Shown here piece after piece: positions 45,804-47,667 of a DNA stretch of 64,000 bases (position 1 is its first letter; each line of letters starts with the position of its first letter). The notes under the pieces were generated by a model. The model was not told the origin of the DNA, searched no databases, and was given only the letters and a program-made list of their open reading frames with translations. Source of the stretch: an uncultured Bacteroidales bacterium (GTDB taxonomy: Bacteria > Bacteroidota > Bacteroidia > Bacteroidales > WCHB1-69). The translations under genes were made by a program, and so were the position numbers. The stretch lies in contig CALAVA010000042.1 in the NCBI GenBank assembly GCA_937892025.1, positions 739 to 64,738 on the forward strand, given 5' to 3'.

Positions 45804-45992
45804 CTGAACCGCCCGAACGGCGAAGCCGTAGAACCTATTATTGTTGTTCTGCGGATTCACGCCGCCGCTGTTAAAGTTCAAGTTCCTACCTTGCGAAGCG
45901 GAGTAGAGCGATGACGACCAGTAGACGCCATTCGCACCACGATTGTTCCACGACGAACCGTTACCGTTACCAGAGCAAGGGAAAAAGAGCCT
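45804..45992 (-). repeat. DGR template repeat (TR), 189 bp
   Basis: 100% identical to 46834..47022 by base-by-base comparison; lies in a non-coding position between the accessory gene and the RT. Confidence 0.85.
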
Positions 45993-46136
45993 ATCGGTCA
46001 CATCCTTATACGAAAGCCTAACAGGGTTGTACTAAATGGCAAGACCATTAGGATTCTTCTCTTTTTCTCGCATCCACAAAGACGAAAGACGTGTGACCTG
46101 TGAATATCTTTCCGAACCGCCCCCCCTATTTTATTA

Positions 46137-46697
46137 TTAAAATAATTTGGTTATGTCCTGTCGAAGAGAGCGCAAGAAATCATACGCCTCAATAGGAGAT
46201 TTTGATTCCAACTGAAAAGCCAGTACACGACCAATGACATCACTTATTCTTGTGATGCGAGGCTCTGCATCCCTAACCTCTCTTTCCTCTCTGCGTTTCT
46301 TTTTCCCCTCCGTCAACGGTAAAGAGTTCTTCCAATCCTCTTTCTGACGATTTAGATTTTCAAAACTTACTTCGCCAATCTCCACGGGCAACTCTACCAC
46401 AACATCTATCTGCACATCGCTTACTGGCTTAAACTCAACCGAACCGTCATTAGGCACATACTTGCCCAACGAAGAAACGGGGAATCCGACAAAAGCATCA
46501 AGATACCCGTCTTTCAGACGTTTAACTGTCACTCCCATTGGTTTTTCCGCTGCCGCCCCAAACGGGAACTTAGACATAATCCATGCACTCCAGTCGTGAG
46601 CACGATAAAACTCGCCCTCCTTTAAGAAGTGAACCACGTTGAACTCATCTACGTTCGTTCGCTTGCTCTCTATCTCTATAATCTCTGCTATAGTCAT
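46137..46697 (-). CDS. DGR accessory protein, MutS-domain-I-like (MSL-type), in the Avd position
   Basis: ..FNVVHFLKEGEFYRAHDWSAW...GVTVKRLKDGYLDAFVGFPVSSLGKYV.. parallels MutS domain I (GDFYE...AG.P......Y); lies between target and TR. Confidence 0.55.
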   Translation of the reverse strand: MTIAEIIEIESKRTNVDEFNVVHFLKEGEFYRAHDWSAWIMSKFPFGAAAEKPMGVTVKRLKDGYLDAFVGFPVSSLGKYVPNDGSVEFKPVSDVQIDVVVELPVEIGEVSFENLNRQKEDWKNSLPLTEGKKKRREEREVRDAEPRITRISDVIGRVLAFQLESKSPIEAYDFLRSLRQDITKLF

Positions 46698-46711
46698 TTT
46701 TTTTATTTTAA

Positions 46712-46783
46712 CTCATTCTTCCCCACGTTCATGCCTTCTGCCATCTTGTGATGGCTGGGGGCATGTCCGAAGGAAAGAATGAG
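46712..46783. promoter_or_regulatory. long imperfect inverted repeat (cruciform/hairpin) downstream of the VR
   Basis: Nested stems: ctcattctt (46712-20) with aagaatgag (46775-83); catgcc (46730-35) with ggcatg (46760-65); gccatc (46740-45) with gatggc (46750-55); loop ttgt. Confidence 0.5.
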
Positions 46784-46830
46784 ATTGGTTTGTAATTTGT
46801 TTTGTTTGTTCTTTTAGGGTAGGAAAGATA

Positions 46831-47667
46831 TTACTGAACCGCCCGAACGGCGAAGCCGTAGAACCTATTATTGTTGTTCTGCGGATTCACGCCGCCGCTG
46901 TTAAAGTTCAAGTTCCTACCTTGCGAAGCGGAGTAGAGCGATGACGACCAGTAGACGCCATTCGCACCACGATTGTTCCACGACGAACCGTTACCGTTAC
47001 CAGAGCAAGGGAAAAAGAGCCTCTTACCATTGATTTTAGAACGCAACAGCAAACCTGTAATACCGTTCACAGTAGTCCTACGGTCTGTAGAAGAGAGAAC
47101 AGTGCCATCCGATGTGATGGTGTCACAATTAGAATATAACTCGGAAAACTCTTCAGTAGTGGGAAGCCTCCAGTTACCACCGAGATTCATCCTTGCAGCA
47201 TCATTGCCAAGACCGCAGTTGTTGCCACCAAAGGTGGTGGCTGTGATGCTTGCACCATACGTGTCTGCATACGTCCCGTCATTGGTCGTACCCCAATCGT
47301 AATTGCCCACAAAGGCATTTGTGCCACTCGTTACACCTGCTTTCGGATTGATGCCGAACGTGTTGCCCCAAGAGAAGAAGGAGCACTCATACTGATAGAC
47401 GGATTCCGCAAAGCCGTTCTGCCTTGTCACGTCCAAGTTCCGTGTCGCCCACATCAGACCCGATGGCAGTCCTAAGTCAACCAGCAGTTCGTTCTCATCC
47501 TTTGATGCACCAACGACAGATGAAATTTTGGTTATCGTCTGTCTGTCAATAAGCGTGCCGTTTGCATCAAACAGGGGAATTTGATACCCTCCCAATGTCG
47601 AATTTGTAGCACCCGATTGCGAAATGGCTTGCATCTCAGCCGTTAAAGCATTTTTGAATGTACTCAT
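46831..47667 (-). CDS. DGR target protein: tail-fibre-tip / receptor-binding protein with C-terminal C-type-lectin-fold variable region
   Basis: The last 63 codons equal the VR; Asn-rich ..NGNGSSWNNRGANGVYW...NLNFNSGGVNPQNNNNRFYGFAVRAVQ*; WATRNLD / FFSWGN motifs; last gene of the tail-fibre array. Confidence 0.8.
   Translation of the reverse strand: MSTFKNALTAEMQAISQSGATNSTLGGYQIPLFDANGTLIDRQTITKISSVVGASKDENELLVDLGLPSGLMWATRNLDVTRQNGFAESVYQYECSFFSWGNTFGINPKAGVTSGTNAFVGNYDWGTTNDGTYADTYGASITATTFGGNNCGLGNDAARMNLGGNWRLPTTEEFSELYSNCDTITSDGTVLSSTDRRTTVNGITGLLLRSKINGKRLFFPCSGNGNGSSWNNRGANGVYWSSSLYSASQGRNLNFNSGGVNPQNNNNRFYGFAVRAVQ
46834..47022 (-). repeat. DGR variable repeat (VR), 189 bp, ending at the stop codon of the target gene
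   Basis: Identical to the TR at 45804..45992; identity breaks exactly at the stop codon (46831-33) and at 47023. Confidence 0.85.

Follow-up and report, generated by a model that had tools for sequence, protein, structure and literature searches.

We describe a diversity-generating retroelement (DGR) in a 64,000-nt stretch of DNA assigned to an uncultured Bacteroidales bacterium (GenBank assembly GCA_937892025.1, contig CALAVA010000042.1, positions 739 to 64,738; this whole stretch is called the window in what follows). In the deposited record the template repeat (TR) and the variable repeat (VR) of the element are identical over 189 nt. The phage itself most probably does not have this perfect identity. 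On balance we think it probable that TR and VR were collapsed during assembly or polishing, and that the resulting mosaic consensus was entered at both loci. The identity, the mosaic composition of the shared sequence, the intact parts of the element and its covarying pairings are shown below; the artefact, and the way in which homing gets its direction, we infer. The locus itself reads as a complete, intact and probably active phage DGR. It belongs to a lineage without Avd and has an accessory protein that, with reservations, is Msl-like.

The identity was claimed in a preliminary description of this DNA, and computed alignment confirms it: 45804-45992 equals 46834-47022 over 189 nt at 100% identity, with an offset of 1030 nt and no overlooked mismatch. 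The limits given there are also right. On the sense (minus) strand both copies end in GGTTCAG, followed by the stop codon TAA in the VR and by CAT in the TR, and at the 5′ edge position 47023 is C and 45993 is A. The sense repeat contains 38 adenines and 13 AAY codons, and all 13 encode Asn in the VR frame, as had been stated; the assignments of TR, VR and DGR are correct as well. The repeat is the only one of at least 40 nt at 100% identity in the window, where a scan masking the adenine sites found no further VR-like copy, and an origin of such an identity by chance is impossible. Both ends of the repeat are poor in adenine, for 24 and 23 nt. With 0 TR-to-VR differences in 189 nt, the adenine-confined differences typical of DGRs are absent from this record, and a literature search found no description of exactly identical TR/VR pairs.

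Relatives were collected by scans for the DGR reverse transcriptase (RT) in IMG/VR, metagenome contigs and GTDB genomes, which gave about 50 loci, mostly from rumen and gut Bacteroidota material and often on phage-like contigs of about 75 kb. In INPHARED, megablast with the DGR region and with two 25-kb stretches of the window yielded nothing related except a 73-nt HNH fragment. The minus-strand order in the window (target gene with C-terminal VR, 133-nt spacer, accessory open reading frame (ORF), 144-nt leader, TR, 44-nt spacer, RT) is the same in every relative locus holding both repeats. Comparison with related phages had been proposed as a check on the identity, and it sets the window apart. 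Each of the 26 other distinct TR/VR pairs has 11-41 mismatches, overwhelmingly at TR adenines (the counts at adenine sites in orthologous pairs include 17/17, 23/23, 15/16, 19/19, 11/11, 20/20 and 37/37), and the window is the only zero-difference case among 27 distinct TR/VR-flank combinations. Its TR also has the fewest adenines of all, 38 against 41-49 in the family TRs.

Two relatives depart from the common pattern in ways of their own. In the L003/L017 element (VR 2624-2809, TR 3639-3824) 18 of 41 TR/VR mismatches lie outside TR adenines, unlike in all close relatives, and this element may be decaying or long inactive. In P0122, a Logan contig of 1,773 nt, the VR of the target homologue still encodes Asn at most variable positions, which shows that the family does include lightly diversified VRs.

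The closest relative is a sibling phage, reached by protein search through its RT (P0002), which is 99% identical to that of the window. Its contig, L057, is a 62,301-nt MEGAHIT contig at the European Nucleotide Archive (ENA) from a bioreactor metagenome (ERR1278104, project PRJEB12797). Around the DGR the two differ at 54 of 3,959 ungapped nt, and outside TR and VR at 32/3581 (0.9%). The sibling VR differs from its own TR at 17 positions, all 17 at adenines, which puts its copies 9% apart. The VR of this sample was assembled as one dominant variant, with two ENA contigs giving the same target protein.

Comparison with the sibling TR shows that the sequence shared by the two window copies is a mosaic. 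There are five differences, all borne by both window copies. One is a C-to-T change. At the other four the sibling TR has A and the window has G, T, T and T, at sense positions 67, 68, 88 and 163 of the repeat (plus-strand 46956, 46955, 46935 and 46860 in the VR, and 45926, 45925, 45905 and 45830 in the TR). The codons change from AAC to GTC (67-68), from AAC to TAC (88) and again from AAC to TAC (163), giving Val, Tyr and Tyr. These four positions are canonical diversified A sites, A being found there in 14/15, 15/15, 13/15 and 14/15 distinct family TRs, respectively. Four of five TR differences from the sibling falling on A sites has a binomial p of 0.010, and A sites have changed at a rate of 4/42 in the TR versus 7/1042 in 3.6 kb of flanking sequence (Fisher p=5e-4).

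The changed bases also look like DGR products, whether in the double change from AA to GT or in the two changes from AAC to TAC. Few sites are substituted in the VRs of relatives as often as 67 and 163, and of 20 aligned homologues 18 have Tyr or Phe at position 163 and 9 have Tyr at position 88. Judged from its sequence, the shared repeat is mostly template-like with a few product-like bases; the VR cannot be called simply naive, nor the deposited TR pristine. The claim of no adenine-site differences therefore holds between the two window copies and fails against the sibling and family TRs. Since four canonical A sites are changed in both copies, either the deposited TR is wrong too or the TR itself has changed.

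Some other TRs of the lineage also lack A at the same sites: L003 (3639-3824) at 88, L014 (ends 995) at 67 and 88, and L038 (ends 1210) at 163. Template adenines at strongly selected positions seem to be lost repeatedly.

Four explanations of the identity had been listed in the preliminary description, and they fare unequally. Assembly collapse now leads, and the naive, silent and non-mutagenic readings are disfavoured. Those three would have the VR freshly reset from a pristine TR, the DGR being silent or homing without mutagenesis through a high-fidelity RT. The absence of any TR/VR difference and the 13/13 AAY codons still encoding Asn are what such a VR would show. The mosaic composition argues against it, the TR copy being itself non-pristine, with its four A-to-N changes against sibling and family TRs, so the shared sequence departs from the ancestral template at just the sites that are diversified. 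Nor can a normal mutagenic event leave 38 adenines untouched. The per-site mutation density is reported as about 50% for Bacteroides and BPP-1 (10.1101/2024.11.15.621889), and by our own arithmetic the probability that all 38 stay unchanged in one event is about 4e-12 at 50% per site and about 2e-5 at the lowest density in the family.

The machinery likewise gives no support to a silent or non-mutagenic element. The RT has a Pfam RVT_1 match (E=1.4e-10), and its IGNLTSQ and YVDD align with IGSLTSQ and YMDD of the BPP-1 RT (bRT), motifs of the DGR type. The same alignment shows that it keeps the equivalents of bRT R74 and I181, which we take to be positions affecting adenine mutagenesis. It is identical to the sibling RT at 385/389 residues, the exceptions being D209E and three C-terminal residues, none of them in conserved motifs. 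The accessory protein is identical to that of the sibling, and the leader, the TR-RT spacer, the VR-hairpin spacer and the hairpin show 0 differences. A dead or high-fidelity RT was rejected, given the intact catalytic YVDD, the IGxxxSQ motif, both bRT positions and a sibling RT that is nearly the same and demonstrably mutagenic. With machinery unchanged from that of a sibling whose VR is diversified, nothing points to silence or high fidelity in the window, and we regard these three readings together as very improbable.

In the phage itself, the TR would pass its information to the VR by way of a cDNA mutagenised at adenines. For the record we favour a merge of the two near-identical 189-nt repeats, made by a repeat-resolving assembler or during consensus building or polishing, with the merged sequence then written twice. 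If reads of TR and VR were merged per bubble or per site, A would be kept wherever the VR is unchanged or heterogeneous, and the VR base would win only where the VR allele is nearly fixed; a merge of this kind predicts exactly such a mosaic. VR/TR loci are known to disturb assembly (PMC8008677). In the Logan assembly of ERR1278104 the sibling locus breaks in the A-free 3′ end of the VR, with contig L059 starting 25 nt before the VR stop codon; as this stretch is common to TR and VR, it is an example of assemblers breaking or branching exactly there. A plain de Bruijn unitig is unable to cross two exact repeat copies longer than k, so the contig must come from a repeat-resolving or polished assembly, where such a failure is possible. 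In assemblies of that type one collapsed edge is written twice by construction. The window resembles known collapses of near-identical repeats in short-read or polished assemblies in its exact identity over a precisely homologous span and in the mosaic of two expected alleles. In the sibling genome the two copies are 9% apart.

Several points weigh against a merge. None of the 26 related pairs is collapsed, with several assemblers involved, so collapse is uncommon. A region collapsed as one single bubble would come out as pure TR or pure VR, which would leave the mosaic to be explained by biology. The TRs of L003, L014 and L038, which lack A at the same sites, mean that the window TR could be genuine.

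One way to accommodate a genuine TR is an artefact of a more special kind, in which the TR is as deposited, with three codons hard-wired, and the assembler threaded the high-coverage TR path through a hyperdiverse VR. The k-mers of the TR would stand at full coverage and those of each VR variant at little, and at small k the A-poor ends of the repeat would connect TR k-mers with the flanks of the VR. Other lineages do have hard-wired TR sites. Against this, the scheme needs four DGR-like TR changes within about 1% divergence (p~5e-4 under neutrality), and the single dominant VR variant in the sibling's sample does not suggest hyperdiversity. We consider it improbable.

The identity would instead be real if recombination or gene conversion had acted between the direct repeats, which lie 1 kb apart, and the phage had been sampled before its next mutagenic homing. 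Either a lightly diversified VR was copied onto the TR, or a TR with fixed Val, Tyr and Tyr was copied unmutated onto the VR. The shared sequence does have VR-type residues where VRs usually hold Tyr, and a template that had captured such residues would give more functional variants. The three eroded TRs show that template erosion or hard-wiring happens in the lineage, lightly diversified VRs exist (P0122 is one), and a homogenised state could persist, as DGR homing is rare per generation. Against the first route, it needs a VR with only four changed adenines, and the 26 relatives have 11-41 mismatches; against the second, two rare events would have had to happen separately while the phage diverged from the sibling by only about 1%. 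Recombination is also inefficient when repeats differ every few bases, and no other identical pair was found in the lineage. We rate conversion as a serious but rather unlikely account. Its bolder form, that the template is not invariant and that Val, Tyr and Tyr at 67-68, 88 and 163 were copied back from VR to TR and hard-wired, leaving the repeats momentarily equal, with recurrence in the lineage as in L003, L014 and L038, we likewise find doubtful.

The choice between these readings has consequences. If the identity is an artefact, it is a practical warning: DGR finders that depend on TR/VR mismatches would miss the element, and neither the TR nor the target protein can be trusted as deposited. 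A real identity would be direct evidence for information flow from VR to TR and for templates that evolve; were back-copying true, DGR templates would evolve by feedback from their own products. Whichever reading holds, the directional boundary of this Avd-less lineage appears to be a VR flank of 10-11 nt that covaries with the leader upstream of the TR.

That boundary lies outside the repeat. The preliminary description had noted that the repeat has no internal difference between an initiation of mutagenic homing (IMH) site in the VR and its TR counterpart (IMH*), the difference that gives homing its direction. This is true, and it is not peculiar to the window, as the TR/VR homology of every relative stops at GTTCAG. 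The discriminator appears to be the immediate 3′ flank outside the repeat, the VR flank being IMH-like and the TR flank a degenerate, IMH*-like version. The VR flank AATATCTTTCC (46822-46832) is the exact reverse complement of a leader block whose sense sequence is GGAAAGATATT (plus-strand 46103-46113); the two form an 11-nt inverted repeat, 708 nt apart. Eight distinct lineages, with 5 covarying sequence versions among them, have perfect complementarity of 10-11 nt at this position. Of the cells in the aligned segments 87.5% are paired, against 33-48% after sliding of the register; 5 of 11 pairs have changed on both sides, and none of 500 shuffles attains the covariation score. Mismatched pairs of loci reach 10 nt in 0.46% of 648 comparisons. 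The more distant relatives L048, L042, L021 and L041 have matches of 8-11 nt at a similar position in the leader.

The TR 3′ flank (CATACAATTCTGA...) is about 55% identical to the VR flank and pairs with the leader only in two short helices. This duplex has an energy of -22.4 kcal/mol versus -16.3 +/- 3.4 for shuffles, and one of its helices covaries, being GGAT/ATCC in most lineages and GGGGGC/GCCCCC in the window. Within the leader, 45993-46102 (minus) has a conserved three-helix fold; RNAalifold gives 32 pairs over 7 lineages, 18 of them with compensatory changes.

From covariation we infer functions for flank, leader and hairpin. The VR-specific 3′ flank, through its perfect pairing with the RNA element in the TR leader, would give homing its direction, and the leader block is a candidate RNA guide or primer element marking the VR as recipient. 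The large hairpin downstream of the VR probably helps and could act as the hairpin/cruciform 3′ of the VR does in BPP-1 (PMC3240598). In the BPP-1 model an RNA primer attached to the cDNA pairs more extensively with the IMH of the VR than with the IMH* of the TR (PMC5703328). The pairings described here lend comparative support to the idea that an RNA segment travelling with the cDNA chooses VR over TR by base pairing. The inverted repeat of leader and flank was also considered as a pair of transposon ends with a target-site duplication; this was rejected because the shared GGTTCAG stands on the same side of both arms.

The features of the locus are listed in Table 1.

Table 1. Parts of the DGR locus, with positions in the window
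Feature	Position	Strand	Basis
DGR target gene, 278 aa; VR is the last 63 codons before the stop	46831..47667	-	ORF
VR, copy of the 189-nt repeat	46834..47022	-	identical to TR copy
VR-specific 3′ flank, sense AATATCTTTCC, begins at second base of stop codon	46822..46832	-	leader complementarity
Long imperfect hairpin, 72 nt, ~45 nt 3′ of VR stop codon	46712..46783	-	inverted repeat
Accessory ORF, 186 aa, pI 5.4	46137..46697	-	ORF, conserved position
Leader 5′ element, sense GGGGGGGCGGTTCGGAAAGATATT	46103-46126 (plus-strand coordinates)	-	pairs with VR flank and TR 3′ flank
Structured non-coding leader, accessory ORF to TR	45993..46136	-	RNAalifold
TR, copy of the 189-nt repeat, non-coding, 44 nt upstream of RT start	45804..45992	-	repeat comparison
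TR 3′ flank, sense CATACAATTCTGATAGCCCCC	45783..45803	-	pairing with leader 5′ element
DGR reverse transcriptase, 396-aa ORF (389 aa as called in public data)	44569..45759	-	RVT_1

The target protein has only sub-threshold matches to Lcl_C and Fib_succ_major/FISUMP in Pfam and NCBIfam. There are 188 target homologues at E<=1e-60, with hypervariable C-termini. Its AlphaFold2 (AF2) model is too poor to use, with a predicted local distance difference test (pLDDT) score of 41, and a C-type-lectin or immunoglobulin fold for the VR is no more than a candidate. The hairpin downstream has a folding energy of -43.7 kcal/mol versus -14.3 for shuffles. It is found at the equivalent place in 10 of 10 relatives examined, in differing sequences, so that structure is kept and sequence is not. 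An Rfam search over 44000-48000 gave one generic sub-threshold hairpin match and nothing else, and no family for the leader.

The accessory ORF is conserved between VR and TR throughout the RT lineage. It has no BLASTP similarity to BPP-1 Avd, and it is the only ORF between target and RT. Avd is present in about 74% of DGRs and so is not universal. Searches of Pfam and NCBIfam and a PDB sequence-profile search gave no match for the accessory protein. Its AF2 model has a pLDDT of 82, and the top 12 Foldseek hits in the PDB are all MutS chains (probability 0.63-0.99, with weak E-values of 0.06-0.24). The best of these superpose at a root-mean-square deviation of 2.6-3.0 A over 55-79 columns, with a TM-score normalised to the query of about 0.3. 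The resemblance is of the N-terminal half to MutS domain I, and the conserved motif is G-x-F-Y-R-A-x-E/D-W-S-A-W ... V-G-F-P. With probabilities high and E-values weak, we call the protein Msl-like with reservations. It may correspond to the MSL or CH1 class of Wu et al. 2018.

Known DGRs provide likenesses and differences. With BPP-1 (mtd-avd-TR-brt) the window shares the order of target with C-terminal VR, accessory gene, TR and RT; an RT of 32% identity with IGxLTSQ, YxDD and the R74/I181 equivalents; adenine-specific TR-to-VR differences, here in the orthologous loci; a hairpin 3′ of the VR (PMC3240598); and an RNA element that pairs better with the 3′ boundary of VR than with that of TR (PMC5703328). 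The window differs in having no Avd, its accessory protein being acidic and MutS-domain-I-like. Its structured RNA and flank-complementary element stand upstream of the TR and not in a downstream spacer, the TR lying 44 nt from the RT. Its IMH-like discriminator comes after the stop codon, outside the TR/VR identity. Its hairpin, about 70 nt in length, is separated from the VR by about 45 nt, whereas BPP-1 has a short stem directly after the IMH. Lastly, TR equals VR in the window record.

Msl (MutS-like) accessory proteins have been reported in Bacteroides and Legionella DGRs, which also encode Avd (PMC5758913; 10.1101/2024.11.15.621889); the window cassette encodes none between target and RT. 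The pI of the window protein, 5.4 versus a reported value of about 7.2, is lower, and intermediate between MSL and CH1, the acidic class found in Avd-less DGRs.

Further observations concern the remainder of the window. The product of the gene upstream of the target (47715-49433, minus) has 572 aa here, against 622 aa in the 99%-identical sibling. A segment near this gene is only 92% identical to the sibling, and tail-fibre-like genes near the DGR diverge faster than the rest. At 8551-8712, within the ORF 8160..8921, a 27-nt unit (9-aa repeat) occurs in 5-6 tandem copies. The single megablast match to deposited phages, 73 nt at 21634-21706, is to a NUMOD4/HNH endonuclease gene of crAss001-like Bacteroides phages, at 87-91% identity. 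A tRNA-Ser gene with anticodon GCT lies at 10801-10886 on the plus strand.

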